Shown here piece after piece: positions 43,801 to 61,778 of a stretch of 64,000 nt of DNA. The notes under the pieces were generated by a model that worked only from the letters and a program-made list of their open reading frames with translations, searched no databases and was not told the DNA's origin. The number at the start of each line of letters is the position of its first letter. Positions within the stretch are counted from its first letter, which is position 1. This DNA comes from Vicinamibacteria bacterium (GTDB lineage: Bacteria > Acidobacteriota > Vicinamibacteria > Fen-336): contig JBGPBV010000016.1 of assembly GCA_041481445.1 (NCBI GenBank), forward strand, positions 12,432-76,431. Reading direction: 5' to 3'. Both the position numbers and the translations under genes were made by a program.

Positions 43801-43996
43801 GGGAAGTGAAGGGTCGATGGAAACTCGAAGCCGCTACAGTACCCCTTCAGCCGTGGGTTTCCAAGACTCTCGCCTCGTCGTGCCTCGCCCGCCGCGCCTC
43901 GCTACCAAGGTATCTCCCGGACATTCAGAGCGACCTCTTCTAGGATTAGCGGACGAACGTCGACGTGAAGGAGCGGCGGGCACGGAGGGCAAGGCG

Positions 43997-44869
43997 GTGA
44001 CGTCCAACAGGGTCAGCAACGATGGCATCCCCGATCACATGCCGCCGTTGCTGCGGCGGCGCCTCGAGCGTGCGGAGGCCTGGGCCGGCAACGAGAAAAC
44101 GGCGGCTCTCGTCGAGATGCCAGGTCTGGTGGCATGGGTGCATTCCGTGCCCAGCGACTCCAGTACGGGTGGCGGCGACGTCCACTACCTGTCCGTCTGC
44201 CCCAGCGGGATCGTCTCCCGGATCGCCCTTGCCGACGTGAGCGGGCACGGACAGGCCGTGATGAGCGTCGGTGAGAAGCTGCGTGAGCTCATGCTCCGAT
44301 ACCTCACGGCGCTGGAACAGGTCGGGCTCATGCGGGATCTGAGTCGAGCGGTCCGGGAAGAACTGGACGGCGTGCACTACGCCACGATGGTAGCGGTCGG
44401 ATGGCATGGCCGCCGCCGCCTGCTCGTCGTGACGAATGCGGGGCACCCCCCGCCGTGTTGGTACCGCGCGGCCCTTGGTGAATGGAGTTGGATTGGAGCG
44501 CGACACGCCAGCGAGCGAGGGCGGACGGTCGGCGTTCCCCTCGGCCTGCTCGCCGACAGCAGCTACGACCGCGCGGTACTCAAGCCCGAGATAGGCGACC
44601 TGGTGGTGCTGTACACGGACGGGGTCTTTGAAGCCTCGAACGAGGCGGGAGACGAGCTGGGTCGCGACGGGCTGATGAGGATCGCGCGCGGGTTGGACGC
44701 GAGCTCGGCCGAGGCTTTCGGAAGCCAGTTGGCGGCCGCGCTGCGCCGCTTCCGCGGACGCGCGGAACCCACCGACGATCAGACGATCATCGTCCTGCAG
44801 AGGGTGGCTCCCGAGACGTCGCCAAGTGGATCCCGGCCTGACCCACGGAAACGGGCCGCGCGGAAATAG
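43997..44869 (+). CDS. PP2C-family (SpoIIE-like) serine/threonine phosphatase, stand-alone
   Basis: A GGAGGG RBS precedes a GTG at 43997; an alternative ATG is at 44039. SpoIIE-like metal-binding motifs ALADVSGHG and YTDGVFEA. Confidence 0.7.
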   Translation: MTSNRVSNDGIPDHMPPLLRRRLERAEAWAGNEKTAALVEMPGLVAWVHSVPSDSSTGGGDVHYLSVCPSGIVSRIALADVSGHGQAVMSVGEKLRELMLRYLTALEQVGLMRDLSRAVREELDGVHYATMVAVGWHGRRRLLVVTNAGHPPPCWYRAALGEWSWIGARHASERGRTVGVPLGLLADSSYDRAVLKPEIGDLVVLYTDGVFEASNEAGDELGRDGLMRIARGLDASSAEAFGSQLAAALRRFRGRAEPTDDQTIIVLQRVAPETSPSGSRPDPRKRAARK

Positions 44870-45026
44870 CTCCCCGCCCCTCCCCCTAACGAGGTATGCG
44901 CAGGCCCCTCCATTGCGTGGGGCGGAAACGACCCGATTGCGTGATGCGCGCGCGGCGGCCGGCCCGCTAGCATCCGGCGTTCGCTGCGCAACCGGACCGC
45001 GCAGGGTTCGAGAGGAGGCAAAGAGC

Positions 45027-45698
45027 ATGACGGCCAGACCCATCGTGTTCGTCGTCGACGCCGACGTCTCCGTGCGTGAGTCCCTGGAGCTGCTGATCGA
45101 CCGCAGTGGCTGGCAGCCGAGGACGTTCGCGTCGGCGCCGGAGTTCCTGGCTCAGGCGCGTGTCCCCGCTCCGAGCTGCATGGTGCTCGACGTCGCTCTC
45201 CCGGGCCTCAGCGGCCTCCACCTGCAGAAGCTCGTCGCCGACCGGACCGACATGCCGATCATCTTCCTCACCGGCTCCGGCGACGTGGCCATGACCGTCC
45301 AGGCCATGAAGGCGGGCGCCGTGGAGTTCCTGACCAAGCCGTTCCGTCCCGACGTGCTCGTTGGCGCCATCCGCGAAGCGCTCGAGCGCAGCTGGCAGGC
45401 ACTGGCGCGGGAGACGGCGCTGAAGTCTCTCCGTGAGTCCTACGCGTCCCTCAGCCGCCGCGAACGGGAAGTGATGGCCCTGGTCGTCGCCGGGCTCCTG
45501 AACAAGCAGGTCGGGGGCGAGCTCGGCATCAGCGAGATCACCGTCAAGGCGCACCGCGGCCAGGTGATGCGGAAGATGCAGGCCGACTCCCTCGCCGCCC
45601 TGGTGAAGATGGCGGCGAGACTCGACCTTCCCGCCGCCTGGCCGGCGGAGCCGGTTCGCCCGGTCGCGGTGACCGCCTATGGCCAGTTGTCCCTGTGA
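45027..45698 (+). CDS. FixJ/LuxR-family response regulator
   Basis: A GAGGAGG RBS precedes the ATG at 45027. REC domain (IVFVVDAD...CMVLDVALPGLSG). LuxR-type HTH (SRREREVMALVVAGLLNKQVGGELGISEITVKAHR). Confidence 0.85.
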   Translation: MTARPIVFVVDADVSVRESLELLIDRSGWQPRTFASAPEFLAQARVPAPSCMVLDVALPGLSGLHLQKLVADRTDMPIIFLTGSGDVAMTVQAMKAGAVEFLTKPFRPDVLVGAIREALERSWQALARETALKSLRESYASLSRREREVMALVVAGLLNKQVGGELGISEITVKAHRGQVMRKMQADSLAALVKMAARLDLPAAWPAEPVRPVAVTAYGQLSL

Positions 45699-45716
45699 GA
45701 TGCCCTGGAGTCTGGC

Positions 45717-47081
45717 TCAGGGGCCATGGCCAGACGCGGCGAGCGGCTCTCGACGTGCCTGGGAGACATCGTGCGCCAGCGCCTTCAGGGCGTCCGCGTA
45801 GATCTCCGAGAACGTCGGGAAGGGCTGGATCACGTCTCTCAGCACATCGAGAGGCACACGGGCGCGGATGGCCAGCGTGGCCTGCTGCAGCCACTCGCCG
45901 GCCTCGGCGCCCAGCGCGTAGGCGCCGGTGAGCCGGTCGCCGTCGCTGAGCAGGGTGAGGAATCCATTGTCCTCGGCGTAGGCGCGCGAATAGGTGGCCG
46001 TCCTCGCCACCGCCGACAGGCGGGCCGTCCCGCGGAAGCGCGCCTCCGGCGCCCCCACCGCCGCCGCTTGCGGCTCCGTGAAGACCACACGCGGTACCGC
46101 TTCGTAGTGGGCCTCACGCGACTCGCCGAGGATGTTCGCGGCGACGATGTCGGCCTGGTACTTGCCGACGTGGGTCAGCAACCAGATTCCGTTGACGTCG
46201 CCGACGGCCCAGAGACGCTCACCCGCGCGCAAACGCGCGTCGACGGGGATCCCGTGTCCGTCGGCCTGGATTCCCACGTTCTCCAGACCGAGGCCGGCGA
46301 CCCGCGGGCGACGGCCCGTCGCGACGAGGAGGCGGTCGCCGCGCACCTCGCGGCCATCTCCGAGGGCCAGGACGTAGTCCTCGCCTTCGCGTCGCGCCGC
46401 CGTGACCTTCGCGCCGAGGACGAGCTCCACTCCCTCGCGACGCAGGACCGCGCCCAGCGCCTCGCCCAGCGGGGCCGGCTCCCGGGCGAGGACCCGCTCC
46501 GCACCCTCCACCACGACGACCTCACCCCCGAAACCACGGACCGCCTGCGCGATCTCGACGGCGACGGTTCCGCCGCCGAGCACGAGCAGACGGCGCGGAA
46601 CCACCTTCATGCCGGTCGCCTCGCGGCTGCCCCAGACGCCGTCGAGCTCGCGCAGGCCCGGCACCGGCGGCACGACCGGCTCCGAGCCCGTCGCGACCAC
46701 GATGTGCTCGGCGGTGTAGCGGACGCCGTTCACCTCGACCGCACCGGTGCCCGCGATCCGGCCGCGGCCGCGCAACAGGTCGATGCCCGCGCCCGCCAGC
46801 CAGCGGACCTGGCCCGCATCGGAGTAGTCCGAAACCATGACGTCGCGCCAGGCCAGCGCGGCCGGGACGTCCACCTCTGCCCTCGCCGCCGCCTCCCGCG
46901 CCGCCCGCGCCGCCTGGCCGGGACGCAGCAGCGTCTTGGAAGGGATGCACGCCCAGTAGGAGCATTCGCCTCCCACCAGCTCGCGCTCGACGACGGCCAC
47001 GCGCAGGCCGCCCTCCGCCAAGGCGCCGGCGCAGTGCTCGCCGGCCGGCCCGCCGCCGATGACGATGACGTCGTAGTGCAT
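45717..47081 (-). CDS. class-I pyridine-nucleotide-disulfide FAD oxidoreductase (dihydrolipoamide-dehydrogenase/glutathione-reductase family)
   Basis: ATG at 47081 ([15 protein letters not shown]). Redox-active [13 protein letters not shown]. Second Rossmann [13 protein letters not shown]-terminal dimerisation domain. Confidence 0.85.
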
Positions 47082-47107
47082 GACGCCTCCTCCAGGACGC
47101 GAAGGGC

Positions 47108-48181
47108 CTAGTCGATCCGCAGGCTTTGTTCCATCGAGTAGCACTGGTCCCAGACGTAGATGTCGAAGGCGGCGAGCCTGGCCGACCACTTCGGCGTCAG
47201 CCGCTCGACGCACTGCGCCGCCACCCGGTCGATGTAGTTGTCGAAGACCGCCCACGGGTTCGACTTGTCGAGCGGATTCAAGCCCTCACCGGGCTTGGTG
47301 GTGGCCAGGGCCGTGCCCGCCGCCTGCTTCACGTCCGCATAGAATTGCGCCTGCACGTCCACGTCGGCATGGGTACCCGTACGCGCGACATGGCCTCCCA
47401 CCAGCGTGTCCCAGTCCATCTTGCGGATCTCTTCCACCTGGGCGATGGAGCGTTGTACGTCCTGAGCCACCGCGAAACGACGCCACGGCATCCAGCCCGG
47501 GAAGACCACGTCGACGACCATCAGCACCCGCTGGGCGGGCGCGGAGATGAAGATGTTGCCCGGCTCGTGTGCATTGCCGTGGTACGAGAGCTCGAGCACC
47601 TGGCTGCCGGCGCGGAGGGTATAGCGGTCGGCGAACGTCACCGTGGGCAGGGGCCGGTTCGGATCGGCCGCACGCTTGAGCAGCCGGAGGGTTTCCTCGT
47701 GCGCGATGACGACGGGATGACCGCCGAGGGCCTTGATGCCCGCGATGTGGTCGGTGTGCGAATGGCTGTAGACGACGTGCGTGATCGGCCGGTCGGTGAC
47801 CTCGGCGATGGCCTGCGGAATGTGCGCGGCGTAGCCCGGGGGCGCGTCGATCACCACGACACCGCTCTCGTACACCAGGAACATCGACTGGTACGCGCCG
47901 TCCGTGACCATGTAGAGGCCCTTGCCCAGGTCCTGGCGGCGATAACCCTTGGCGGGGTCGATGGCCGGCCCCTGGGCCGAGGCGGGCACGTCCATGTACT
48001 TGCCGATTCTCACCCCGATCGGGGCGATCGCGGGCATGCCCGGGTAGGGTTCCCCGGCTGCCCCCGGGACCACGGCCGAGTCCGCGGAAGCGGCGTTCGT
48101 CGTCGCCGCGGGTCCGTTGAGGACGGCGAGGGCCACCGCCAAGGCCAACACGCCGGCGCCGAGCTTGATCGTCGTCGTCAT
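47108..48181 (-). CDS. secreted metallo-beta-lactamase-fold hydrolase
   Basis: A GGAGGA RBS precedes the ATG at 48181. Signal peptide. HSHTDH zinc motif. Confidence 0.8.
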   Translation of the reverse strand: MTTTIKLGAGVLALAVALAVLNGPAATTNAASADSAVVPGAAGEPYPGMPAIAPIGVRIGKYMDVPASAQGPAIDPAKGYRRQDLGKGLYMVTDGAYQSMFLVYESGVVVIDAPPGYAAHIPQAIAEVTDRPITHVVYSHSHTDHIAGIKALGGHPVVIAHEETLRLLKRAADPNRPLPTVTFADRYTLRAGSQVLELSYHGNAHEPGNIFISAPAQRVLMVVDVVFPGWMPWRRFAVAQDVQRSIAQVEEIRKMDWDTLVGGHVARTGTHADVDVQAQFYADVKQAAGTALATTKPGEGLNPLDKSNPWAVFDNYIDRVAAQCVERLTPKWSARLAAFDIYVWDQCYSMEQSLRID

Positions 48182-48220
48182 GTGATCCTCCATTCTGGAC
48201 GCCTGCGCGATCTGACCACA

Positions 48221-48316
48221 CGCTCGAACACCGAAACCATTGGACGAAAGTGTCGGTCGAAACCGATACCAAAGTCCGATGGACGAACCGCCCTCGCCGC
48301 GCGCATCCTGACCGCC
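48221..48316. repeat. intergenic cassette C: ATTGGACGA-N-ACCGATACCAA-N-GATGGACGA-N16-GCGCATCCT
   Basis: Same architecture and about 75% identity to 54741..54848. Lies in the MBL/VOC divergent region. Confidence 0.65.
48280..48309 (+). promoter_or_regulatory. putative sigma70-like promoter (-35 TGGACG, 18-nt spacer, -10 CATCCT) of the VOC gene, embedded in cassette C
   Basis: The -35/-10 hexamers are conserved in position and sequence with cassette D. Lies 72 nt upstream of ATG 48381. Confidence 0.3.
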
Positions 48317-48380
48317 AACCATGGAAGCCGCGATTGAGACGGATGCATCCCATACAAACGATCAGGAGAGAGAGGCCACG

Positions 48381-49058
48381 ATGAGCACGCAGACACGCAG
48401 TGAGCAAGCCGCCCGGGCCCCGAACGCCGCGACGGTCGAAACGAAGCTCGAGGTCGTCGTCCTTCCGGTGTCCGATGTCGATCGCGCCAAGCGCTTCTAT
48501 GGGGGCCTGGGATGGAGGCTGGACGCCGATTTCACCAACGGCCCGGATTGGCGGGTCGTGCAAATGACCCCTCCCGGCTCGCAAACCTCCGTCCAAATCG
48601 GCAAGGGAATCACGACGGCCATGCCGGGCTCGGTCAAGGGAACGTTCCTCGTCGTCGAAGACATCGAGGCCGCACGCGCCGAGCTCATCGGCAAAGGCGC
48701 CGACGTGAGCGAGCCGTTCCATTTCGCCAGCATCGGGGGACCGCGCTTGCCCGGCGTCGACCCCGAACGTCGCACCTACAACACCCGGGCCACGTTCAGC
48801 GATCCGGACGGCAACACCTGGCTGCTCCAGGAGATCACGACGCGGCTTCCCGGACGCGGATTCAGCGGGCTGGACGTCGCGACGCTGACCGGGCTCCTGC
48901 GGGAGGCGGAGACGCGCCACGGCGCGTACCAGCCGACCGCTCCGAAGCACCACTGGTCGGACTGGTACGCCGCCTACATCGTCGCCCGCGAGCGCGGCCG
49001 GACTCCCGAGGACGCCGTCAAGGACGCGGGGCTCCACTTGGAGGGCGCGCGGCGTTGA
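48381..49058 (+). CDS. VOC (glyoxalase/bleomycin-resistance/dioxygenase) family protein
   Basis: An AGGAGAGAGAGG RBS precedes the ATG at 48381. Two beta-alpha-beta-beta-beta modules. Confidence 0.8.
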   Translation: MSTQTRSEQAARAPNAATVETKLEVVVLPVSDVDRAKRFYGGLGWRLDADFTNGPDWRVVQMTPPGSQTSVQIGKGITTAMPGSVKGTFLVVEDIEAARAELIGKGADVSEPFHFASIGGPRLPGVDPERRTYNTRATFSDPDGNTWLLQEITTRLPGRGFSGLDVATLTGLLREAETRHGAYQPTAPKHHWSDWYAAYIVARERGRTPEDAVKDAGLHLEGARR

Positions 49059-49651
49059 GAGCAGACATCGTTCCCGGGACCGTTTTCCCCGACTACGAGC
49101 TGTCCGACCACCGCGCGACGCACCGAAAGCTCTCGGAGCTGCAGAGGGACGATCCGCTGGTGCTGGTGCTCTCCCGCGGAGGGTTCTGTCCGAAGGATAG
49201 ACGCCAGCACGAAGGGCTCCTGCAGCTCCACCGCGAGATGCGCGTCGGCTACTGCCGCCTGGTGACGGTCTCGACGGACAACCTCATCGAGACGAACGAT
49301 TTCCGCGACGGCGTCGGCGCCCACTGGCCGTTCCTCTCGGACCCTGGGCGGATGGTCCAGAAGGATCTCGACATCGCGGAGTACACCGACCCGGATCACA
49401 ACCCGATGATCCCGCACACGCTGGTGCTCGAGCCCGCCCTGCGCGTCCACAAGATCTACAACGGCTACTGGTTCTTCGGACGGCCGACGGTGGAGGAGCT
49501 GCGCCTCGACCTGCGCGCCGTGCTGCGGCCCTGCCGTCCCGATTGGGACATCAGCAGCGCGGAGCAGCGAACAGCCTGGGAGAAGGGCGAGAAAGCGCGT
49601 TTCTTTCCGTACGGGAAGACGCGGGTGCAAGTGCTGGCCGAGCGGGACTGA
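49055..49651 (+). CDS. redoxin / AhpC-TSA-like thioredoxin-fold protein
   Basis: TTG start overlapping the VOC stop (TTGA). GGFCPKDRRQHEGL peroxiredoxin-like Cys motif. Confidence 0.6.
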   Translation: MRADIVPGTVFPDYELSDHRATHRKLSELQRDDPLVLVLSRGGFCPKDRRQHEGLLQLHREMRVGYCRLVTVSTDNLIETNDFRDGVGAHWPFLSDPGRMVQKDLDIAEYTDPDHNPMIPHTLVLEPALRVHKIYNGYWFFGRPTVEELRLDLRAVLRPCRPDWDISSAEQRTAWEKGEKARFFPYGKTRVQVLAERD

Positions 49652-50053
49652 TGCGCGAACCGGAGCTGCTCGAGCCGACGTTCATGGCGAACGGCTTGGA
49701 GGTCAGGCCGCGGATCTCGGCGATCACGTCGCGGATCGCCTCCGCGCCGGGCCGTGCGCGCCGAAGGACCCGAGACCGCCGAAGTTCGAGACCGCCGCCG
49801 TCAGTCTCTGCGATGACCGCCCGCCGAGCGGACCCTGGATCACGGGATAGAGACGCCGGTGTCCAGCCCGATGCGCGCATGGGCGATGCCTTGCACGTCG
49901 TCGAGAGCCGGCAGCAGGCCGACGGTCGATGGCTCCTCGATCGCTCGCACAATGAGGCGCTCGCCTTCCCGTTCGGCGAGTCGGTGGGCGCGCCCAGTCG
50001 GTGGAACACGCTCCGGGCGCTGCGTGTGCTCCGTTGGTACGAGCGAGCACCGG

Positions 50054-51127
50054 CTAGCCGAACGTGAACACGACCGCCCGGACGCCCGGATCGAGGAACT
50101 CGATCTCGAACCTGCGATCGTCGACGCGCGTGCCCTGTCGAATGAGCTGGTAGAGACGAGGCTCGCGGACCTCGCCGCTGCCGTCGGGGGCCGAATCGGA
50201 TCCGTGCGCGTCGCCGGGCGCGGCGCCGTCCAGCCTCACCTTGAAACGAACGGGGCGTCCGTCCTTCCCCGGAGCCAGCACGAGGTGCAGGTCGCGGCTG
50301 TGGAACCGGAAGACGATCCGGCCGCCCGCGGTCTCGAGCAAGGCGCTCTCGGGGCCGACGTTCCACGATCCGACGAGTCCCCAGTCGTTCCGCGCGAGCC
50401 GGTCCGGTACGCGGTACGTGTTGGGGACGCCGCTGGCCAGCCGCCCGGGTGATGCGAATCGCTCAGCCTGGCGGGAGCCGATATACGTCTCGGGCGACTG
50501 CACCGCCGCGCTGGGCGCGGCTTCGACGCCGTCACCGGCGACACGGACCGTGCTCTCGTCCAGGCCGACCGCTCCGCTCTCCTTCAAGAGCTCCTGCAGG
50601 ACGCGCTCGGCCTCGACGTATTGGCCCTCGCCGAAGTAGTGATGGCGAATGCGGCCCTTGGCATCGATGAAGTACAGCGCCGGCCAGTACGCGTTGTGAA
50701 AGGCCTCCCAGATCCTGTAATCGCTGTCGATGGCGACGGGGTAGGTGACCTTCAGGCCGCGCACGGCCTCCTGCACGTTGGCGCGCTCCTTCTCGAACGA
50801 GAATTCGGGCGTGTGCACGCCGATCACGACGAGCCCTGCATCCTTGTACTTGTCTGCCCAGGCCTTAACGTAGGGTAGAGGCCGCAGCGAGTTTATGCAG
50901 GTGTACGTCCAGAAGTCGACCAGCACGACCTTTCCGCGCAGCGACTCGCTGCTGAGCGGAGCGGAGTTGAGCCAGCAGAGCGCGCCGCCGAGGTCAGGCA
51001 GGCGGCCCTCGTCGGCCAGGGCGGGACGAGCGCTGGTCCCCAGCGCGCCCAGGGCGGCCACCGTCGCCGCCCCGATCGCGGGCAGCGCGGCCAGTCCGAT
51101 GATCACGTTTCTCATGATGCTCCTCAT
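50054..51127 (-). CDS. secreted thioredoxin-like (TlpA/redoxin family) protein with extra C-terminal domain
   Basis: Signal peptide. The thioredoxin-fold motif WTYTCINSL retains a single Cys (CxxS). Confidence 0.7.
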   Translation of the reverse strand: MRSIMRNVIIGLAALPAIGAATVAALGALGTSARPALADEGRLPDLGGALCWLNSAPLSSESLRGKVVLVDFWTYTCINSLRPLPYVKAWADKYKDAGLVVIGVHTPEFSFEKERANVQEAVRGLKVTYPVAIDSDYRIWEAFHNAYWPALYFIDAKGRIRHHYFGEGQYVEAERVLQELLKESGAVGLDESTVRVAGDGVEAAPSAAVQSPETYIGSRQAERFASPGRLASGVPNTYRVPDRLARNDWGLVGSWNVGPESALLETAGGRIVFRFHSRDLHLVLAPGKDGRPVRFKVRLDGAAPGDAHGSDSAPDGSGEVREPRLYQLIRQGTRVDDRRFEIEFLDPGVRAVVFTFG

Positions 51128-51136
51128 TCGTGGCTC

Positions 51137-52168
51137 TCAAATGCCGTCGACGTCGATGACCGCCCGGGCGAACGCTTCGGGCGCCTCCTGGGGAACGTTG
51201 TGCCCAATGCCGTCGAGGATCCGGTGCGCGTGCTTGCCGGCGAACTGCCGGGCATAGGGCGCGCCATCCGCGGCGGCGCCGTCGAAATCACTGCCAATGG
51301 TGATGGCCGGCACCGTGATGGCGGGACGCCGGAACAGCTTCTGCTCCAGGTCCTCGTATCGGGATTCACCCTTGGCCAGGCTCAGCCGCCAGCGGTAGTT
51401 GTGGATCACGATCGCGACGTGATCGGGGTTGTCGAAGGAAGCCGCCGTGCGGTCGTACGTCGCGTCGTCGAAGTCCCACTTGGGCGAGGCGATCTTCCAG
51501 ATGAGCTTGTTGAACTCGTACCAGTTCCGGCGGTAGCCGAGCTGGCCACGCTCCGTCGCGAAGTAGTACTGGTACCACCATCCCCATTCCGCCTTCGGCG
51601 GCAGGGGCTGCTGGTTGGCCTCCAGGTTCACGATCAGGTAGCCGCTGACCGACACGATCCCCTTGCAGCGCTCGGGCCAGAGGGCGGCCATGATGTCGGC
51701 CGTCCGCGCCCCCCAGTCGAAGCCGGCGACGATCGCCTTCTGGACGCCGAGCGCATCCATCAAGGCGAGGATGTCGGCCGCGATCGCCGACTGCTGGCCG
51801 TTGCGGAACGTGTCGGCGGAAAGGAATCGCGTCGTGCCATAGCCGCGCAGGAAGGGCACGATCACCCGGTATCCCTCGGCCGCCAGCAAGGGCGCCACGT
51901 CCACGTAGCTGTGGATGTCGTAGGGCCAGCCGTGGAGGAGAACGACGGCGGGGCCACTCCTGGGGCCTGCTTCGGCGTACCCCATGTTCAGCAGCCCCGC
52001 CTCGACCTGCCGGATCGGGCCGAGCGACGTGTTCGTTCCCGGCTTGCGCTCGCCCATTCGCGGCGCTGCCTGGGCGGACTGCGCGAGCGGGGAGCCCATG
52101 GCGAGCTCGGCCACGGTCAGTGCCGCGGCTCCCATGAAGCGGCGGCGATCGAGCTCGATCCCCGTCAT
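51137..52168 (-). CDS. Tat-exported alpha/beta hydrolase (epoxide-hydrolase-like)
   Basis: RRRFMGAAAL twin-arginine signal. LLHGWPYD and GFDWGA motifs. Its ATG overlaps the upstream stop (ATGA). Confidence 0.8.
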   Translation of the reverse strand: MTGIELDRRRFMGAAALTVAELAMGSPLAQSAQAAPRMGERKPGTNTSLGPIRQVEAGLLNMGYAEAGPRSGPAVVLLHGWPYDIHSYVDVAPLLAAEGYRVIVPFLRGYGTTRFLSADTFRNGQQSAIAADILALMDALGVQKAIVAGFDWGARTADIMAALWPERCKGIVSVSGYLIVNLEANQQPLPPKAEWGWWYQYYFATERGQLGYRRNWYEFNKLIWKIASPKWDFDDATYDRTAASFDNPDHVAIVIHNYRWRLSLAKGESRYEDLEQKLFRRPAITVPAITIGSDFDGAAADGAPYARQFAGKHAHRILDGIGHNVPQEAPEAFARAVIDVDGI

Positions 52169-52746
52169 AGGATCTCGTCGATCCGGTGCACCGCTCCGTC
52201 CGGGCGCGTTTCGCCGACACCGACGCTGATGATGCGATTCAGGAATGCGTACGTCTCCGCCGAGGTCTCGAACCTCGGCACCGTTCGGAAGTAGTAGCGC
52301 GCGGGATCGACGACCTCTCCACGCCCGAGGGCGGCGATCGCGTCCGGGGGGCCGTGACGGAGCCCCTGGAACGTCATGTAGATCAGCCCATGGTCGTCCG
52401 TCTCCAGCGTGATGCGCAGGTCCAGCTCCAGGACGCCGTCGGAGCGCAGCAACAGCCAGTCCCCTCCCCCGGGCAGGATCTTTCCGCGCAGTCGCGGGCC
52501 TTCGAAGTCGCCGCCCGTGACCGGCACGATGATGCGCGTGCCATGGGGCACCGTGCCGAGCTTCTGCGGCGGAGCGGCGGTGATCCTCACCGTCATCAGT
52601 GGTCGCGAGTTCATGGCGGGCTGTCTCCCCTTCGCGGCGGCGGGGGCGCCATCGGCGGCGGCCCTCGGCGCAAGTCCCGGCAGGGCGCTCGCGGCCCCGG
52701 CAACGAGAGGGGCCGCCACGGCCTTGAGCACGTCTCGGCGAAACAT
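52165..52746 (-). CDS. DUF3237-family protein with Tat signal
   Basis: MFRRDVLKAVAAPLVAGAASALP. Paralog of the next gene. Confidence 0.65.
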   Translation of the reverse strand: MFRRDVLKAVAAPLVAGAASALPGLAPRAAADGAPAAAKGRQPAMNSRPLMTVRITAAPPQKLGTVPHGTRIIVPVTGGDFEGPRLRGKILPGGGDWLLLRSDGVLELDLRITLETDDHGLIYMTFQGLRHGPPDAIAALGRGEVVDPARYYFRTVPRFETSAETYAFLNRIISVGVGETRPDGAVHRIDEIL

Positions 52747-52748
52747 GA

Positions 52749-53198
52749 CTAGAGGATTTCCTCGATCGTATAGATCGGTCCGTTCGCGCGGCGATCGCCC
52801 GACGCGATGGCGATCACGCCGTTCAGGTAGGCGTACTGCGGCGCGCTCGTCTCGAACCGTGGCGCGGTCCGGAAGTAGTACCTGGACGGATCGACGGACT
52901 CGCCTCGCGCCAGCGCCGCGAGCACGTCCGCGGAGCCGTGACGGAAGCCGAACGACGACATGTTGATCAAGGCGCCGTCGTCCGTCTCCAGCGTGATCCT
53001 GAGATCGAGCTCCAGCACGCCGTCCGCCCGCAAGAGCGTCCAGTCCCCTCCGCCCGGCAGGACCTTGCCGCGCAGCCGCGGGCCGTCGAAGCTGCCGCTG
53101 GTGATCGGCGCGATGACGCGTGTTCCATGCGGCACCGCGCCGAGCCTTTGCGGCGGAGGGACGACGACCCGCAGCGTCATCAGCGGACGTGAAGTCAT
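52749..53198 (-). CDS. DUF3237-family protein (cytoplasmic paralog)
   Basis: About 149 aa. Roughly 70% identical to the C-terminal 150 aa of 52165..52746, indicating tandem duplication. Confidence 0.65.
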   Translation of the reverse strand: MTSRPLMTLRVVVPPPQRLGAVPHGTRVIAPITSGSFDGPRLRGKVLPGGGDWTLLRADGVLELDLRITLETDDGALINMSSFGFRHGSADVLAALARGESVDPSRYYFRTAPRFETSAPQYAYLNGVIAIASGDRRANGPIYTIEEIL

Positions 53199-53212
53199 CG
53201 GGGCTCCCCGGA

Positions 53213-54514
53213 TCACCGGAGCGACTTGAATCCCGCGCGGAGATCCGCGACCAGGAGCTCCGGCTGCTCCCAGGCCGCGAAGTGGCCGCCCTTGTCGAGT
53301 TTGTTGTAGTAGACGAGTTTCGGATAGGCCCGCTCTGTCCAACTGCGCGGCGCCTGATAGAGCTCATCGGCAAAGGCGCTGACGGCAACCGGGATGGCGA
53401 TGCCTTTCGGGGCGAAAAAGACGAGCTTGCTCTCCCAATAGAGACGAGCCGACGAGACCCCCGTGTTCGTCAACCAGTAGAGGGTCACGTTGTCGAGGAT
53501 ATCGTCTCGGGTCAGGCCCTCCTTCTGGCCGCCAATGACGCGCGCGATGAGCGCATAACTGCTAGCGTCGTGATCGATCATCCAAGCGGCGAGACCGATC
53601 GGCGAATCGTCGATCCCGTACAGCGTCTGCGGGCGGTGGCTCATCTCCTGGGCGTAGCCGAGGCCGTTCTTGTAGAAGAAGTCGAGCTGATCGTACGCAT
53701 GACGCTCATCGGCCGAGAGGCCGGCCGGCGCCGCGCCGCCGGACGAGAGCGCCTTGGCAATGTCGTCGGGGACGGTGGCCGGCATATTGGTGTGAATGCC
53801 AAGGAGCTCCGGAGGCGCCTGCAGGGCCATCTGCTCGGTGACGGCATTCCCCCAGTCGCCCCCCTGGGCCACGAATCGCGTGTAGCCGAGGCGCTTCATC
53901 AGGACGGTCCAGGCGCGCGCGATGCGAATAGGGTCCCAACCGGGAGTGGTGGGCTTCCCTGAGAACCCGTGGCCCGGCAACGACGGAATCACGACGTCGA
54001 AGGCGTCCGATGCACTTCCGCCATGGGCCGTTGGATTCGTCAGCGGATCGATGATCTTCAACTGCTCGATGATCGAGCCTGGCCACCCATGCGTGACGAT
54101 GAGCGGCAATGCACTCGGATGCTTCGAACGCACGTGGATGAAATGAATGTCCACCCCGTCGATGTTCGTGATGAACTGCGGCAGGGCGTTCAGCCTCGCT
54201 TCGGCCTTCCGCCAGTCGTAATCGGTCTGCCAATAGCGCGCGAGCTCTCGCATCGTCGCGAGCTGCACGCCTTGCGATGCATCCGTTACCGTTTCCCGCG
54301 ACGGCCACTTGCTTGCGGCGATGCGCCGACGCAGGTCCGCGAGAGCCTCATCGGATGCATGAAACTGGAATGGCCGGACCTGTTTGTCGTCCGTGGCCGG
54401 GTCCCTTTCGGCGGCGGACGGCGGCGCCGCGGCCCGAGCGCTGGCGGCGAGCACGCCGAGGACGAAGAGCCCCCCGGCGGCGGCCGTGAACGTCGTCTGT
54501 CCGAAATGGGTCAT
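53213..54514 (-). CDS. epoxide hydrolase (microsomal-EH-like, N-terminal EHN domain)
   Basis: ATG at 54514 with a signal peptide. Motifs IHFIHVRSKHP...LIVTHGWPGS, GGDWG and HFAAWEQPE. Confidence 0.85.
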   Translation of the reverse strand: MTHFGQTTFTAAAGGLFVLGVLAASARAAAPPSAAERDPATDDKQVRPFQFHASDEALADLRRRIAASKWPSRETVTDASQGVQLATMRELARYWQTDYDWRKAEARLNALPQFITNIDGVDIHFIHVRSKHPSALPLIVTHGWPGSIIEQLKIIDPLTNPTAHGGSASDAFDVVIPSLPGHGFSGKPTTPGWDPIRIARAWTVLMKRLGYTRFVAQGGDWGNAVTEQMALQAPPELLGIHTNMPATVPDDIAKALSSGGAAPAGLSADERHAYDQLDFFYKNGLGYAQEMSHRPQTLYGIDDSPIGLAAWMIDHDASSYALIARVIGGQKEGLTRDDILDNVTLYWLTNTGVSSARLYWESKLVFFAPKGIAIPVAVSAFADELYQAPRSWTERAYPKLVYYNKLDKGGHFAAWEQPELLVADLRAGFKSLR

Positions 54515-54560
54515 GTCGGATTCCTTTCTCAGGCGCTCACCCCGCCGGTCCGAGGGGATC

Positions 54561-54660
54561 GGTGGCGCGCGAAGACACCGACAAGATCGTCCCGCGGGCC
54601 CGGATGTTCCATTGGACGATGGTGTCGGCGATACCTTCGTATCGGTCGCGACGGTCACGC
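54561..54660. repeat. intergenic cassette A (about 100 nt) with CCATTGGACGA and the 7-1-7 imperfect palindrome GGTGTCGGCGATACC
   Basis: About 80% identical over roughly 100 nt to 60619..60712. Lies between the EH1 start and the SDR fragment. Confidence 0.7.
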
Positions 54661-54770
54661 CTTGTCTGCGTAGGCTCTGTTGTCCACGGGCACGAGTCCG
54701 CGGATCATCTGGCCGCCGTCCACGACGAAGGTCTGCCCCGTGGCGTACGAGGCGGCGTCCGATTTATTGG
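54655..54770 (-). pseudogene. C-terminal fragment of an SDR-family oxidoreductase
   Basis: ...ASYATGQTFVVDGGQMIRG...* is the canonical SDR C-terminus. The upstream part of ORF 54655..55008 is non-coding-like. Confidence 0.4.
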
Positions 54771-54848
54771 ACGATGGCATCGATCCCACCTGAACCGATA
54801 CCAACGTCTGATGGACGATTGCGCTGTGGATGCGCATCCTTTGCCGGG
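54741..54848. repeat. intergenic cassette D (paralog of C) upstream of the SRPBCC gene
   Basis: Sequence: ATTGGACGAtggcatcgatcccacctgaACCGATACCAAcgtctGATGGACGAttgcgctgtggatGCGCATCCT. Confidence 0.65.
54812..54840 (+). promoter_or_regulatory. putative sigma70-like promoter (-35 TGGACG, 17-nt spacer, -10 CATCCT) of the SRPBCC gene, embedded in cassette D
   Basis: Same arrangement as in cassette C. Lies 47 nt upstream of ATG 54887. Confidence 0.3.
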
Positions 54849-54886
54849 ACGCCGCCTCCGAATGGCGGGTCAAGCAAGGAGCACGC

Positions 54887-55336
54887 ATGTCCACGATCCA
54901 TCTCCACCAGACGACCACCGTGACGCCCGAGCAGTTCGTGGCCGGGCTCACCGACTTCGGGCCGGGCCGCTCGAAGCTGTTTGGCAACAGCGCCGACGAG
55001 TACCTCAAGGTGCATCACCAGGCCTCCAAAGAGGCCGACGTCACCGAGGGATCGGGGGGTATCTGGGAACGCCTGCACTACGACTGGTCCGACCCCAACC
55101 GCGTCGTCCTCACGACGACCGACTCCAACCTGTGGGGAGGCGCTTCCGGCCACACCTACACCTTCACGCGGCAGCCCAACGGCACGACCGACATCGACGC
55201 CGTCGTGGTACGCGACGGCAAGAACCTCAGGGGACGGATGCTCGGCCTCGTGCTCGGGACCGTCGGCAAGGGCGTCCTGGAAAAGGCCTTTCGAAACACC
55301 GTCAAGGCCGTCGAAGCCCGAAACGCCGGGGCATAG
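54887..55336 (+). CDS. SRPBCC-family (polyketide cyclase/START-like) protein
   Basis: ATG at 54887 (MSTIHLHQTTTVTPEQFVAG). About 149 aa. Confidence 0.65.
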   Translation: MSTIHLHQTTTVTPEQFVAGLTDFGPGRSKLFGNSADEYLKVHHQASKEADVTEGSGGIWERLHYDWSDPNRVVLTTTDSNLWGGASGHTYTFTRQPNGTTDIDAVVVRDGKNLRGRMLGLVLGTVGKGVLEKAFRNTVKAVEARNAGA

Positions 55337-55399
55337 GCGCCGGCAGCCGATCGCTGACCGAACGCTGAGACGAGGTGATTGGCGTGAAGACCAATATTC

Positions 55400-56670
55400 G
55401 TGTCAATAACGCGGCCTACGAGCTCTCCGTGGGACGCCGAAGGCTCGTTCGCTTTGGAGTCGGCCATCGACGAGCTCTCGTACGCGCTGGGCATCGATCC
55501 AATCGAGCTGCGAGTGAAGAATCACGCGCACGTGCATCCGGAGAGCGGCCTGCCGTGGTCGAGCAATGCGCTGATGGACTGCTATCGACGCGGTGCGGAA
55601 CGCTTCGGCTGGTCGGCGCGCAATCCAAAGCCTCGATCGATGAGGAACGGGGGGCAGCTCGTCGGATACGGCATGGCCCGAGCGGCATTGGTCGCGTACC
55701 AGCCCCCATGCAAAGCCATCGCATCCATACGGCGCGATGGAACGGCCTTCGTTCGCAGCGGCGCGACCGATATCGGGCCGGGCCCCCCCTACACCGTGAT
55801 GACGATGCTCGCGGCGGATTGCCTTGGCGTGCCGATCGAGCGTGTGCAGTTCGGTCTGGGTGATAGCCCGATGCCGAAGGCGCCGCAGGAAGGTGGGTCC
55901 GGACTGACGGGCGCACTCGGCAACGCCGTCCAGGCGGCCTGTGTCGATCTCGTCCGCGCATTCGTGAATCGCGTCCGCGACGACGAGGCGTCTCCCCTCG
56001 AGGGATGTCGATTGGAGGGCATCACCGTTCGGGACGGAGGCATCCAGATCACCGACGATCCCGCGCGCTTCGAAACATATGCCGCCATACTCACGCGGCA
56101 CGGTCTGGACGAGATCACCATTGAAGCAGAGAGCGCGCCGCCGGGTGAGACCTCGCCCGTCACGATGATCGCCCGCGCCGGTCGCTTCGTCCCCTTCACG
56201 GCGCCGTCGACGGGCGCCCGCGCGCACGCCGGGGGATATGCCGCGCACTTCGTCGAGGTCCACGTCGATCCGGATCTCGGAACGATCCGCGTGGCGCGCG
56301 TCGTGTCGGCGGTGGATGGAGGCCGGATTCTCAACCCGAAGACGTCCCGCAGTCAGATCACCGGGGGCATGGCCGGCGGAATCGGCATGGCACTGCTGGA
56401 GGAAACCGTATCGGACCGTACCGTCGTCTGGTGAACACGTCGCTGGCCGACTATGTCGTGGCGCTGAACGCGGACGTGCGGGATGTCGATGTGCTGTTCG
56501 TGGGACAACCCGATTCAATGACCCCCCTCGGAACAAAGGGGGTCGGGGAGCTCGCCATCGCCGGGATGGCGGCCGCAATCGCCAATGCGGTCTATCACGC
56601 GACGAGCACGCGGGTCCGCTCGTTGCCGCTCTCCATCGAGAAGGTGCTCGGACAGGAGTCCTCCCGTTGA
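55400..56670 (+). pseudogene. N-terminally truncated, frameshifted molybdopterin-binding subunit of a xanthine-dehydrogenase/CO-dehydrogenase-family oxidoreductase
   Basis: Only the C-terminal roughly 420 aa are present. A -1 frameshift at about 56425 (ACCGTCGTCTG where ACCGGTCGTCTG would restore ...SDRTGRLVNTSLADY...). Just upstream, about 16 codons resembling the start of a 2Fe-2S small subunit (VKTNIRVNNAAYEL) lie out of frame. Confidence 0.7.
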
Positions 56671-56686
56671 AGCAGGAGATCAGGAG

Positions 56687-57568
56687 ATGTCGATGACAAC
56701 GGCAGCCAGCAACACGACGGCCCCAACGCAGCTCCTCCGAGGGAGAAGCGAGACGTACGCGTATCGCCGTTTCGGCGGCGGACCCGCACGTCCCTTGCTG
56801 TTTCTCCAGCACTTCACCGGGACGCTCGACAACTGGGATCCTGCCGTGACTGATCCGCTCGCAACAGAGCGAGAAGTCATCTTGTTCGATAGCGCAGGCG
56901 TAGGGCGGTCAACCGGCAAGGTGCCCGTCACGGTAGCCGGAATGGCGGCGCATGCGCTGGACTTCCTGGACGGCTTGGGGTTGGACAGATGTGATGTCCT
57001 CGGATTCTCGCTCGGCGGAATGGTCGCGCAGCAGATGGCGCGGGACCGCCCCTCGATGTTCCGCCGGATGATTCTCGTGGGGACCGCGCCGCGCGGCGGC
57101 GACGACATCATGCACCTGGAGAAACCGAGTCTGGCCAGGCACCTTGGTGATCCGACCCTCAAGGGATACGCAGTGTTGCCGAAGCTTTTCTTTGCGCCGA
57201 CGTCGTCGAGCCAGGCGGCCGGCGGGGCGTTCATCGAGAGGCTGGCACAACGAAGCGAGGACCTCGACACCGCATCCGGACCGGCCGTCGCCGCCGCGCA
57301 GATGGCGGCGTTCCGTGAGTGGGAGCAGTCTACGGGGACCCGCTTCGGCGATCTCGAGGGCATCCTTCAGCCCACCCTCGTCGTCAATGGCATCTACGAC
57401 GAAATGATTCCCGTCGCGAACTCCTATCGGTTGGCCGAGAACCTTCCGAACGCCGTACTTCTCGCGTACCCGGACTCCGGACACGGTTCCCTCTTCCAGT
57501 TTCACGACTCCTTCACCCGGCACGCGGCGGCATTCCTCGCGTCGGACTCGCCGTTCGCACCCTACTGA
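56687..57568 (+). CDS. alpha/beta hydrolase
   Basis: An AGGAGATCAGGAG RBS precedes the ATG at 56687. GFSLGG nucleophile motif. Confidence 0.8.
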   Translation: MSMTTAASNTTAPTQLLRGRSETYAYRRFGGGPARPLLFLQHFTGTLDNWDPAVTDPLATEREVILFDSAGVGRSTGKVPVTVAGMAAHALDFLDGLGLDRCDVLGFSLGGMVAQQMARDRPSMFRRMILVGTAPRGGDDIMHLEKPSLARHLGDPTLKGYAVLPKLFFAPTSSSQAAGGAFIERLAQRSEDLDTASGPAVAAAQMAAFREWEQSTGTRFGDLEGILQPTLVVNGIYDEMIPVANSYRLAENLPNAVLLAYPDSGHGSLFQFHDSFTRHAAAFLASDSPFAPY

Positions 57569-57569
57569 G

Positions 57570-58382
57570 TCAGGTCGCCCACCATCCGGGCCAGCGCCAG
57601 CTCCGCGTCCCGCGTCTGGGAAGCCGCGCTCCATCGCGGCCCCGAACCGGCCTTGCGTCTCGGGGCTGCACGCGCCCTCGCCGAAGAGCTCGGAATCGCG
57701 ACGGAAGTCCTCGGCCGGAGCAAGCGCGATGGCATTGATCCGGTCCTTGAGCGCGACCGGGCCGGCGGCCGGAAACCCGGCGATCCGTTGCGCGAGCGAT
57801 CGCACGAAATCGCCGAGAGCGCTGGCGGGCAACGCCCGGTTGATCCAGCCGTACCGTTCCGCCAGGTCCGCGTCGCAATCCTCCGCGCTCAACATGACTT
57901 CGAGCGCCCGCCCGCGGCCCATGAGACGCGTCAAGTGCTGGACACCGCCCGCGCCGGGGATCAGGCCGAATGCCTGCTCCGGCTGCCCGAAAATCGCCGA
58001 CTCTCGCGCGGCAAAGCGCATGTCGCACCGCCAGCACGAACTCGCTGCCCGCGCCGCGCACGCGTCCCTCGATCTGGGCGATGGTGACGAAGCGGCTTGC
58101 GCTCAGGTGGCGAAACAGGAGGCCGATCGACGCTTCGCCGGTCAGCTTCGCCGCCTCCTGCCGGTACTCGCCTATCCGCGTCACATCGACGTGTGAAATG
58201 AAATAGTCGGGGTCGGCGCTCGTGAACACGAGCACCCGGACCGCGTCGTCGGCCTCGGCCCGCTGAATCAGGGACACCAGATCGCGGACCATTTCGGGCC
58301 CGAGGAGGTTCGTGGGCGGGGCCGCAATGGCAACGAACAGAACGGCCCCTTGCTGGCGCACCGTGAGGGTCTCGAGAGCCAT
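57570..58382 (-). pseudogene. enoyl-CoA hydratase/isomerase (crotonase) gene with +1 frameshift
   Basis: The N-terminal 120 aa are in one frame (MALETLTVRQQGAVLFVAIAAPP...GAGSEFVLA). The continuation CDMRFAARESAIFGQPEQAFGLIPGAGG... is in another frame, caused by an extra G at about 58030 (CTGGCGGTGCGAC). No in-frame stop lies at the expected C-terminus. Confidence 0.6.
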
Positions 58383-58390
58383 GGCGACTC

Positions 58391-59677
58391 CTACCGCAAC
58401 GACCGGAACGCCGCCCGGACCTCTTCGGAGAACAGCTGCGGCTGCTCCCAGGCCGCGAAGTGACGGCCCTTGTCCACCTCATGGAAGTAGATCAGGTTGC
58501 GGTACGTTCTCTCCACCCAGGTTCGTGGCGCACGCCAGATCTCGCCGGCGAAGACCGTGAATGCCGTGGGAACGGTGACGTCCCCCTTGTAAACGAGGCG
58601 CGCGTTCTCCCAGTAGAGCCGCGCGGCGGACGCGCCCGTGTTGGTGACCCAGTAGAGCGTGATGTTGTCGAGGATCTCGTCTCGCGTCAGTTCGCCCTCG
58701 GGGTGTCCTTCGAAGGCGTGCGCGATTTGCTCATAGGAGTGCGGGTCGTGATCGAGCATCCAGGCGGCGAGGCCGGCGGGGGTCTCCGCGAGGCTGTAGC
58801 CTATGGTCTGCGGGCGCGTGGCCTGCATGGCGAGATAGGCCAGAGCCAGGGCACTGCGTTGATCGAAAGCGGCCTTCTCCTTCTCGGATAGTCCGGCTGG
58901 CGCCGGGTCGTGCGTGGCGACCGCCCGCGAGATCTCCGGCGGGATGTTCAAGAGCAGGTTCATGTGGATGCCCAGCAGGCCCGGCGGCGCCTGGCGCGCC
59001 AGCGCCTCCGAGACTTTCGCGCCCCAGTCGCCGCCCTGCGACACGTAGCGCGTGTAGCCCAGGCGCTTCATCAACGTGTCCCAGGCGCGGGCGATGCGGT
59101 CGGTGTTCCAGCCGGCCGTGGTCGGTTTGCCTGAAAACCCGTAGCCCGGCATGGACGGAATCACCACATCGAACGCGTCCGACGCGCTCCCGCCATGTGC
59201 CGTGGGATTGGTGAGGAGATCGATGATCTTCAGCTCCTCGATGATCGAGCCAGGCCATCCGTGCGTGACGATGAGCGGCAAGGCATTCTTGTCTTTCGAA
59301 CGAACGTGAATGAAATGGATGTCCAGCCCATCGATCGTCGTCACGAACTGGGGCAAGGCATTGAGCTTTGCCTCCGCCTTCCGCCAGTCGTAGTCGGTCT
59401 GCCAGTAGCGCACCAGCTCCTTCATCGTCGCCGACTGGACGCCCTGCGATTGATCCGTAACCGTTTCCTGGTCGGGCCACCGGGTCGCGGCCAGGCGCCG
59501 CCGGAGGTCGACGAGCGTCTCTTCCGGAACGTGGACCTGGAAGGGACGGATGGCGCTGTCGTTGCCGCCCGCGGCCACGGCCGCCGTCCCCGTCGGCAGC
59601 CCGATCACCATCACCATGAACATGACGGTGCCGATTCGGTGTGCCACGCGGTGGGCCGGTCGTTCGAGTGGCTTCAT
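58391..59677 (-). CDS. epoxide hydrolase, paralog of 53213..54514
   Basis: About 75% identical to EH1 over the full length. Signal peptide. Confidence 0.85.
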   Translation of the reverse strand: MKPLERPAHRVAHRIGTVMFMVMVIGLPTGTAAVAAGGNDSAIRPFQVHVPEETLVDLRRRLAATRWPDQETVTDQSQGVQSATMKELVRYWQTDYDWRKAEAKLNALPQFVTTIDGLDIHFIHVRSKDKNALPLIVTHGWPGSIIEELKIIDLLTNPTAHGGSASDAFDVVIPSMPGYGFSGKPTTAGWNTDRIARAWDTLMKRLGYTRYVSQGGDWGAKVSEALARQAPPGLLGIHMNLLLNIPPEISRAVATHDPAPAGLSEKEKAAFDQRSALALAYLAMQATRPQTIGYSLAETPAGLAAWMLDHDPHSYEQIAHAFEGHPEGELTRDEILDNITLYWVTNTGASAARLYWENARLVYKGDVTVPTAFTVFAGEIWRAPRTWVERTYRNLIYFHEVDKGRHFAAWEQPQLFSEEVRAAFRSLR

Positions 59678-59694
59678 TGCGATGTCCTCCACAC

Positions 59695-59765
59695 ACATGA
59701 AACCAGACGCGCAACGTCCGATCCATTAGACTAAGGTATCGACGACACTCTCGTATCGCTCCACC
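59695..59765. repeat. intergenic cassette E (inverted core GGTATCGACGACACT plus CCATTAGAC) upstream of EH2
   Basis: The core 15-mer matches B in reverse orientation. Flank halves are shared with A. Confidence 0.55.
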
Positions 59766-59787
59766 GCCTGTGCGGCGGAGGTCAAGC

Positions 59788-60468: not shown

Positions 60469-60618
60469 ACTTCACTCCGATGTCTTCCACGCACATGATA
60501 CCAGGACACGCGACGCTCGATGTTGCGGGAAGTCGTTGACAGGAACTGCGTTGGCGGTGGATGACGCGCACCTCAGCCGCGCCGTCCACCGCACGGCCTT
60601 TGAACTACCGTCGCCAGC

Positions 60619-60712: not shown

Positions 60713-60725
60713 CGCTCCGCTAGCG

Positions 60726-61730: not shown

Positions 61731-61778
61731 AATCGCGGGAGCTACGAACGCCGTGCTCGCCGCTCGGCCGCCGCTCCC

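Follow-up and report, generated by a model that had tools for sequence, protein, structure and literature searches.

NarL, a response regulator with a GerE-type helix-turn-helix (HTH), uses recognition units in several arrangements and spacings, and its recognition sequence is the heptamer TACYYMT. StyR and TodT, FixJ-subfamily activators of styrene and toluene catabolism, bind palindromic boxes of the ATAAACCATGGTTTAT type centred near position -41, plus upstream boxes, and activate sigma70 promoters. At the fixK promoter of Sinorhizobium meliloti, FixJ protects two overlapping regions beside the -35 element, from -69 to -44 and from -57 to -31 (PMC4999443). The box of DosR (DevR) in Mycobacterium tuberculosis is 20 bp long, TTSGGGACTWWAGTCCCSAA, with a GGAC-N4-GTCC core (PMC2275270). 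Here we analyse a 64-kb window, that is, the whole stretch of 64,000 nucleotides taken from contig JBGPBV010000016.1 of a Vicinamibacteria bacterium (Acidobacteriota), to which all coordinates refer, and describe in it a putative operator built from 16-nt modules. Judging from sequence comparison, two regions that carry it, C (48240-48309) and D (54767-54840), are probably promoter regions of one regulon, most likely under a FixJ/StyR-type response regulator encoded at 45027-45698.

The candidate regulator shares with FixJ the succession of a receiver domain (REC) and a GerE HTH, the regions protected at fixK match the predicted module centres here (about -61 and about -43.5), and the kinases that accompany the regulator carry PAS domains and an AHEVNQPL-type H box. 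However, the published FixJ sites TAAGTAATTTCCCTTA and GTAGTTTCCC (PMC4999443) differ from the motif, and FixJ serves fixK and nifA in Alphaproteobacteria, whereas the targets here are detoxification and redox enzymes in Acidobacteriota. FixJ proper, the oxygen-responsive FixLJ system, was rejected because of these enzyme targets, the dissimilar motif and a score below the equivalog cut-off. StyR offers the closest solved structure, but its regulon and kinase type differ, and the StyR/TodT box is unrelated in sequence to our motif. The likeness to DosR/DevR is one of description, the proteins being uncompared: a response regulator with a GerE/LuxR-type HTH, a multi-operon stress regulon and a box core that resembles the modules here (GGAC-N4-GTAT / ATAC-N4-GTCC), which differ in being half-symmetric and paired with free spacing, in front of another gene set. 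NarL recognizes 7 nt where the modules here have 16. A two-component regulator with its operator and regulon is ordinary in kind; what is new is the free inter-module spacing, the specific system and its breadth. In the open-access literature we found no paper with this motif and none on such a regulon in Acidobacteria. Acidobacteriota are among the most abundant soil bacteria, and their gene regulation has hardly been studied by experiment.

Results

Each of C and D consists of two inverted copies of a 16-nt module, TTGGACGAAGGTATCG, followed by a predicted core promoter. A sequence-only reading of this DNA had described them as direct-orientation cassettes with duplicated TGGACGA boxes and shared blocks. 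All four blocks, ATTGGACGA, ACCGATACCAA, GATGGACGA and CATCCT, were located in both stretches in the order it gave (Table 1), and the 11-mer ACCGATACCAA has exact matches at C and D alone on both strands of the 64 kb. The idea of direct repeats of one box had to be given up, the blocks being parts of inverted modules, with ACCGATACCAA as the start of the second copy. TGGACGA does occur twice in each region, but the two copies are not the same element: the first is the outer end of the distal module and the second is the -35 hexamer. By itself this word is mildly enriched in the window, about two-fold (21 matches against 11.4 expected). Scanning the window with GGACGAAGGTATCG located the module pairs at 48242-55 (+) and 48264-77 (-) in C and at 54769-82 (+) and 54796-809 (-) in D. 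As a pair the modules are clearly an inverted repeat, while within the 16-nt module symmetry is limited to AC-N4-GT, a weak dyad of the form rkAC-N4-GTmy.

The same two modules stand 1 nt apart in three further sites, A, B and E, forming a 29-bp palindrome oriented to minus-strand genes. Followed toward the gene, each of the five sites presents in this order the distal module, the proximal module with a GTCC or GTCT end, 2 nt, a -35-like hexamer (TGGACG, TGGAAC or TGGATC) and, after 16-18 nt, a -10-like hexamer (CATCCT, GATCTT, CATCGT or TTTCAT).

These promoters are also detected independently of the window. Model R1 is a profile made from sequence alone, using 90 'proximal module + promoter' segments from other genomes and metagenomes and no window sequence. 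On the 64-kb window it returned exactly six oriented promoters and nothing else with E < 0.06 (Table 1). A promoter scan with a consensus that is that of Escherichia coli called neither the C nor the D promoter. Their weakness by this consensus fits activator dependence, and what speaks for them is that orthologous promoters conserve their position and sequence. Loci L122, L173, L153, L162, L165, L172, L082 and L185 repeat TGGACG-N17/18-CATnCT at an equal distance from the module, in agreement with the promoter conservation claimed by the earlier reading; L082 is a Vicinamibacterales metagenome-assembled genome with the window's promoter class. The 'sigma70-like' label that the reading gave to these promoters is plausible.

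Table 1. Coordinates of the modules, predicted promoters and genes in the 64-kb window, with E values of model R1. Operons are predicted.
Feature	Position	Strand	Description and source	R1 E value
Candidate regulator	45027-45698	+	FixJ/StyR-subfamily response regulator, REC + GerE HTH, 223 aa; 2.5 kb from C; Pfam Response_reg + GerE	
Leftward operon of C	45717-48181	-	MBL-fold protein 47108-48181; MerA/lipoamide-dehydrogenase-like flavoprotein 45717-47081; Pfam + NCBIfam	
Leftward C promoter (predicted)	48210-48239	-	-35 TGGTTT 48234-48239; 18-nt spacer; -10 TCAGAT 48210-48215	1.3e-6
C left module	48240-48255	+	TTGGACGAAAGTGTCG; holds first TGGACGA; proximal for leftward, distal for rightward promoter	
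C inter-module spacer	48256-48263		GTCGAAAC; 8 nt	
C right module	48264-48279	+	CGATACCAAAGTCCGA; inverted copy, most of ACCGATACCAA; proximal for VOC promoter	
Rightward C promoter (predicted)	48280-48309	+	-35 TGGACG 48280-48285; 18-nt spacer; -10 CATCCT 48304-48309	6e-5
Rightward operon of C	48381-49651	+	VOC/glyoxalase-fold protein 48381-49058; AhpC/TSA-like protein 49055-49651; Pfam + source contig gene calls	
Probable SDR 3' remnant	54660-54766	-	…SDAASYATGQTFVVDGG…stop; fused to left edge of D; translation	
D left module	54767-54782	+	TTGGACGATGGCATCG; orphan	
D inter-module spacer	54783-54795		13 nt	
D right module	54796-54811	+	CGATACCAACGTCTGA; proximal for promoter of SRPBCC-fold gene; identical in L173, L185	
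D promoter (predicted)	54812-54840	+	-35 TGGACG 54812-54817; 17-nt spacer; -10 CATCCT 54835-54840; conserved in L173, L185	5.5e-4
SRPBCC/START/Bet v 1-fold protein	54887-55336	+	149 aa; fold from AlphaFold2 model + Foldseek	
Block ATTGGACGA	C 48239-48247; D 54766-54774			
Block ACCGATACCAA	C 48262-48272; D 54794-54804			
Block GATGGACGA	C 48278-48286; D 54810-54818			
Site A	54583-54644	-	modules 54612-54627, 54629-54644; -35 TGGAAC 54606-54611; -10 GATCTT 54583-54588	9e-6
Operon under site A	53213-54514; 50054-51115	-	epoxide hydrolase (first interval), two DUF3237, alpha/beta hydrolase, thioredoxin-like (second interval)	
Site B	59697-59758	-	modules 59726-59741, 59743-59758; -35 TGGATC 59720-59725; TG-extended -10 TTTCAT 59697-59702	8e-10
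Genes under site B	58391-59677; 57570-58382	-	epoxide hydrolase; ECH-like	
Site E	60637-60697	-	modules 60665-60680, 60682-60697; -35 TGGAAC 60659-60664; -10 CATCGT 60637-60642	1.4e-5
Gene under site E	59788-60468	-	MerB-like	
Next best R1 matches			distal modules	>= 0.066

Genomes were scanned with the pattern TTGGACGANNGNNTCGN{1,15}CGATACCNNNGT, which required near-exact modules, and gave at least 118 loci against a chance expectation that we estimate at about 4. The centre between the modules was 1-2 nt in 116 of the 122 listed matches, although 15 lengths were permitted. Among the listed loci the hosts were mostly Terriglobia and other Acidobacteriota, with further hosts in Alpha- and Betaproteobacteria (Ramlibacter, Paraburkholderia), Planctomycetota, Chthoniobacterales and Solirubrobacterales. 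Tunturiibacter gelidiferens X5P2 and Ramlibacter montanisoli B156 are examples of carriers in culture. In an oriented logo of 110 sites, TCGTCCAA is followed by T(T/A)G(A/T)T(T/C), 17 nt, TG and a T-x-A-T element, and the architecture (module, 2 nt, -35, 17 nt, -10) is fixed in this logo and in 108 promoter segments. Relative to the -35, which it precedes or abuts, the site keeps one distance and one orientation throughout the logo, the segments and all six promoters of the window, whose starts are predicted.

The genes downstream recur as well: epoxide hydrolases, VOC proteins, AhpC-like proteins, MerA-like reductases, SRPBCC-fold proteins and enoyl-CoA hydratase-like proteins (ECH), together with DJ-1/PfpI, aldo-keto reductase (AKR), cytochrome P460, HbpS-like, cupin and beta-carbonic anhydrase-like targets. 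Over genome and metagenome loci, identity to the window genes was 67-87% for the epoxide hydrolase, 65-83% for VOC, 77-90% for AhpC-like, 74-91% for the reductase and 74-86% for the SRPBCC-fold protein; in the genome-scan loci it reached 71% (epoxide hydrolase), 70% (VOC), 81% (AhpC-like), 74% (reductase), 67% (alpha/beta hydrolase) and 74% (the 149-aa SRPBCC-fold protein). Homologues of VOC (70-83%) and of the AhpC-like protein (81-90%) adjoin sites in L052, L082, L113 and L122. C, D, A, B and E share a single cis element, which precedes similar sorts of genes at 180 or more loci outside the window; the proposal that the five belong to one regulon is thereby supported.

In most Acidobacteriota sites (Terriglobia class, L001-L118) the conserved -10 region reads TG-G-(C/T)(T/C)T(A/G/C)AT, as in TGGCTTAAT and TGTTCTGAT; the TG extension is present, and the absence of the nearly universal A from position 2 of the hexamer may reflect lineage-specific promoter rules or another sigma factor. 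A sigma54 reading of TGGCTTAAT was rejected on its wrong GG-GC distance.

A metagenome scan limited to centres of 4-18 nt gave 65 loci. Centres of 4, 8, 9, 10, 12, 13, 14, 15 and 17 nt were seen besides an 18-nt class, in which three modules follow one another. Divergent open reading frames (ORFs) flank each of the 21 distinct long-spacer sites, and the sites with homologues in the window carry regulon genes. The orthologue of C in L122/L182 conserves both flanks, with a 91%-identical reductase to the left and, to the right, a VOC of 83% identity; the centre again has 8 nt but differs in sequence (GTCGCGAC), and L122 keeps a leftward promoter with -35 TGGTTy and -10 TCAGAT. These features suggest that C is bidirectional, serving the MBL-fold protein and reductase leftward and VOC and the AhpC-like protein rightward. 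The orthologue of D in L173 has an 86%-identical 149-aa protein on the right, an 87%-identical short-chain dehydrogenase/reductase (SDR) on the left and a centre of 8 nt, and the module equivalent to the left module of D serves the divergent SDR gene. In front of homologues of the D gene the spacer is thus variable, with 8 nt in L173, 13 nt in D and 18 nt in L153, and L185 has the proximal module of D and lacks the left one. From the long-spacer sites and L185 it follows that the 16-nt module is the unit, that each promoter has its own proximal module and that the distance between modules is unconstrained.

In the window, no recognisable leftward -10 lies beyond the left module of D. The ORF end fused to it, about the last 35 codons, was tentatively assigned to SDR by a C-terminal motif and a weak match to the SDR of L173; Pfam gave no match to its 41 aa, and the stretch is missing from the homologous interval of L185.

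Several variants of the operator deserve mention. In Terriglobia a three-module array is very common (module, 1 nt, inverted module, 3 nt, inverted module; L123-L183, and L022, L038, L051, L070), placed between divergent genes of which one is often of the cytochrome P460 family. At L041 3489-3526 and L028 6843-6872 the flanks are identical, and the palindrome centre differs by an 8-nt expansion of ATCGATCG; it looks like slippage at the CGATCG core, a plausible route to long-spacer variants. Sites A and E share a 52-nt stretch of 92% identity (54604-54655 and 60657-60708), including CGGTCGCGACGG beyond the distal module, which is also found at 3790-3850 of L185. The 8-nt spacer GTCGCGAC of the C-like site in L122 is present in this stretch too.

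Clustering of all ORFs in the loci left a single DNA-binding family prominent, the REC + GerE regulator. Homologues 60-76% identical to the regulator of the window occur, by raw count, in 33 of the 118 listed genome loci and in 17 of the 65 metagenome loci. In at least eight loci a copy is divergent from the site within about 260 nt, often about 200 nt, and copies usually adjoin PAS(-GAF)-HisKA-HATPase kinases. Within 8 kb, L185 combines two epoxide hydrolases, A-like and D-like sites, the SRPBCC-fold gene, ECH, a REC protein, the regulator and a PAS kinase, and an A-type sequence precedes an epoxide hydrolase there. These comparisons establish the motif with its architecture and conservation, the gene set that recurs, and the linkage between sites and regulator in the genomes.

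The regulator of the window has an 83%-identical relative from Vicinamibacteria. Its closest solved structures are StyR (1yio, E 4.6e-52) and then FixJ (5xso, E 5.9e-41), and FixJ is its best NCBIfam match (NF006900, 195.6 bits, below the equivalog cut-off of 255). The sequence contains VVDAD, which we take to be the acidic pocket, VLDV, presumably with the phospho-acceptor Asp, and LTGSGD and TKPF, presumably with the conserved T and K of receiver domains. Upstream of it, 39683-44869 encodes a sensor kinase of 1023-1240 aa and a PP2C (SpoIIE-type) phosphatase, neither of which accompanies the regulator at other loci. The kinase at 39683-43405 was rejected as the cognate one, being of the HisKA_3/NarX type with Y_Y_Y and not of the PAS type seen with the regulator elsewhere.

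Discussion

We infer regulator binding to the motif, activation, the identity of the sigma factor and the signal within the following scheme. A cytoplasmic PAS histidine kinase encoded outside the window would phosphorylate the regulator, which would then bind the modules and recruit RNA polymerase to the weak TGGACG-N17/18-CATCCT core promoters, switching on a set of redox and electrophile-detoxifying enzymes. The proximal module has a fixed orientation, its GTCC end facing the downstream -35 across 2 nt, and would be centred at about -43.5 given the predicted -10, which is a class II activator position. At one-directional promoters (A, B, E and most Acidobacteriota sites) an inverted second module 1-2 nt away, centred at about -61, would complete a 29/30-bp palindrome, and the two centres would correspond to the classical class II and class I activator positions. 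In divergent regions each promoter would have its own proximal module, with the distance between modules free from 4 to 18 nt. D would then be a divergent region from which a rearrangement removed the leftward partner.

Activation by the phosphorylated regulator is the mode we favour, with repression possible above all in the Terriglobia class with its TG-extended -10. A repressor version would keep the same sites and the same regulator and place the protein beside or over the -35, where it would block RNA polymerase until a signal arrives. The proximal module ends merely 2 nt from the -35, the 29-bp palindrome would suit a dimer of dimers, and the Terriglobia core promoter looks fairly strong (TTGATT/TAGATT, 17 nt, TG-extended -10). 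However, neither the -10 nor the predicted start is ever covered by the site, and core promoters in the window's lineage are weak by the E. coli consensus. StyR is an activator at a comparable position, and so is FixJ, which acts from this position at fixK. The latter case is documented (PMC4999443), and on the whole we consider repression unlikely. We give still less credit to a different, unlinked transcription factor as the binder, with the FixJ-type regulator as a frequent member or neighbour of the regulon. The regulator family is indeed very abundant in these genomes, the regulator gene of the window has no site of its own or cognate kinase nearby, and genes for extracytoplasmic function (ECF) sigma factors occur in 8 loci; yet no other DNA-binding family is comparably enriched, copies of the regulator diverge from a site at close range in the loci described above (at least 8, within about 260 nt), and GerE-type HTH regulators typically have sites with such a GGAC-N4-GT core and in such a position.

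That the palindromes are structural or mobile elements (like REP elements or miniature inverted-repeat transposable elements, terminator hairpins or recombination sites), with C and D alike through insertion, is very improbable, and the mobile-element remnant that the sequence-only reading had itself named as its refutation is not supported. A, B and E do lie 20-30 nt past the stop of a minus-strand ORF upstream of them and have the potential to form 14-bp hairpins, the region contains gene fragments (SDR remnant, MoCoBD, alpha/beta-hydrolase), and the A/E stretch is 92% identical over 52 nt. But hairpin covariation is absent: complementary bases at mirrored variable positions were counted in 36 of 81 sites, where 39.7 were expected, G5 faces a C in only 28 of 81, and the outer ends are asymmetric (AT against CC), the distal end being AT and not CC in 60 of 81. 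Orientation and distance are fixed relative to the -35/-10 hexamers and the gene starts, and the long-spacer versions, although they interrupt the palindrome, are preserved from one orthologue to another. A terminator would be out of place at C, which has divergent gene starts on its two sides; the sites have no terminator-like T run, and Rfam gave no match at E <= 1 over 44000-62000. Integron-like cassettes or transposon ends were rejected, no integrase being seen, the inverted repeats lying 1-18 nt apart and the flanks being conserved with orthologous loci.

Other readings of the element were considered and dropped. A TetR-, ArsR- or MerR-type operator has no such regulator gene from 43.4 kb to the end of the window. 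A MerR-type promoter, TTGGAC-19/20 bp-TnGTAT, would transcribe away from the regulated genes, and the conserved hexamers are on the other side; at A, B and E the side of the MerR reading holds the 3' end of a convergent ORF. Since the centre varies by 1-2 nt, a small ORF running through the palindrome was discarded. At A and E, TGGAAC…CGT may be read as an ECF sigma promoter, against which stand the long spacing and the other promoter classes, which do not fit.

Several points weigh against regulation of C and D by the FixJ/StyR-type regulator as proposed. The regulator family is very large, with at least 8000 clusters at E <= 1e-40, and its linkage to the sites could in part result from paralogues being so abundant; alternatively, the binder might be another protein and the regulator a neighbour under the same control, and in the window neither a PAS kinase nor a site adjoins its gene. 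One dimer per module is a guess, given the weak internal dyad (AC-N4-GT). The within-module logo is biased by the pattern, since the scans demanded near-exact modules. Position 2 of the Terriglobia -10 (TGGyTTAAT) does not have the A that is usual there, which makes the sigma factor uncertain, and a TG-extended -10 might need no activator, a point that would favour repression.

A wider reading is attractive and somewhat short of an even prospect: a multi-phylum stress regulon in which one highly conserved FixJ-subfamily two-component system would control a portable redox/electrophile toolbox through a modular operator, one unit at -43.5 being enough and the second lying 1 to 18 nt away. Acidobacteriota would be the dominant phylum, with Alpha- and Betaproteobacteria, Planctomycetota, Verrucomicrobiota and Actinomycetota as the others. 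If this is true, the modular design would make it possible to assemble promoters, to split them and to share them between divergent genes. Our analysis provides an easily scanned cis element, a named candidate regulator and a recurrent target set, so that the role of the very large FixJ-like regulator family in soil bacteria becomes a testable question. The free module spacing is in addition a natural system for the combination of class I-like and class II-like contacts by GerE-type regulators.

Genes around the sites

The sites lie in a redox/detoxification gene island (45.7-60.7 kb) comprising the MerA-like flavoprotein, MBL-fold, VOC, AhpC-like and thioredoxin-like proteins, alpha/beta hydrolases, two DUF3237 proteins, two epoxide hydrolases, an ECH-like, a MerB-like and an SDR protein. 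The element would explain this 15-kb island as six co-regulated transcription units.

The earlier reading had called the gene after D SRPBCC. At the level of the fold this is borne out: the AlphaFold2 model of the 149-aa protein (pLDDT 79) matches TTHA0849 and aromatase/cyclases in Foldseek with TM scores of 0.73-0.76. At the level of the family it is not, as neither Pfam nor NCBIfam gives a match and the sources name it 'hypothetical protein'. The 120 best-listed homologues, out of 8000 candidates at E <= 1e-5, are 81-95% identical, and the protein appears to be a core member of the regulon.

The MerB-like gene under site E gave no match in a phmmer search against the PDB. It is broken by one in-frame TGA at 60022-60024 (…WWNDIVFT-TGA-SLMLFFRSEE…), 61 residues after the cysteine of NCAWDA and, we presume, close to the position of the second, C-terminal catalytic Cys of MerB. 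A hairpin, UCUUCC-GGUC-GGAAGA with a GGUC loop, follows 13 nt downstream of the TGA. The metagenome relative L173 keeps the hairpin as well as the TGA with its context, which suggests selenocysteine rather than decay, and the gene may encode a selenocysteine protein and not be a pseudogene.

Besides the probable SDR remnant at D, two gene fragments were found near the sites. Right after the SRPBCC-fold gene, 55400-56434 encodes a 344-aa C-terminal piece of a molybdopterin aldehyde-oxidase/xanthine-dehydrogenase large subunit (MoCoBD), and at about 61540-61700, upstream of the SDR gene, lies a short alpha/beta-hydrolase-like piece with a stop codon. The gene fragments around the sites indicate that the island has been rearranged repeatedly. 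The tandem DUF3237 genes in the site-A operon (52165-53342) are about 70% identical in DNA, and homologues of DUF3237 are direct targets of sites in the L178/L131 group.

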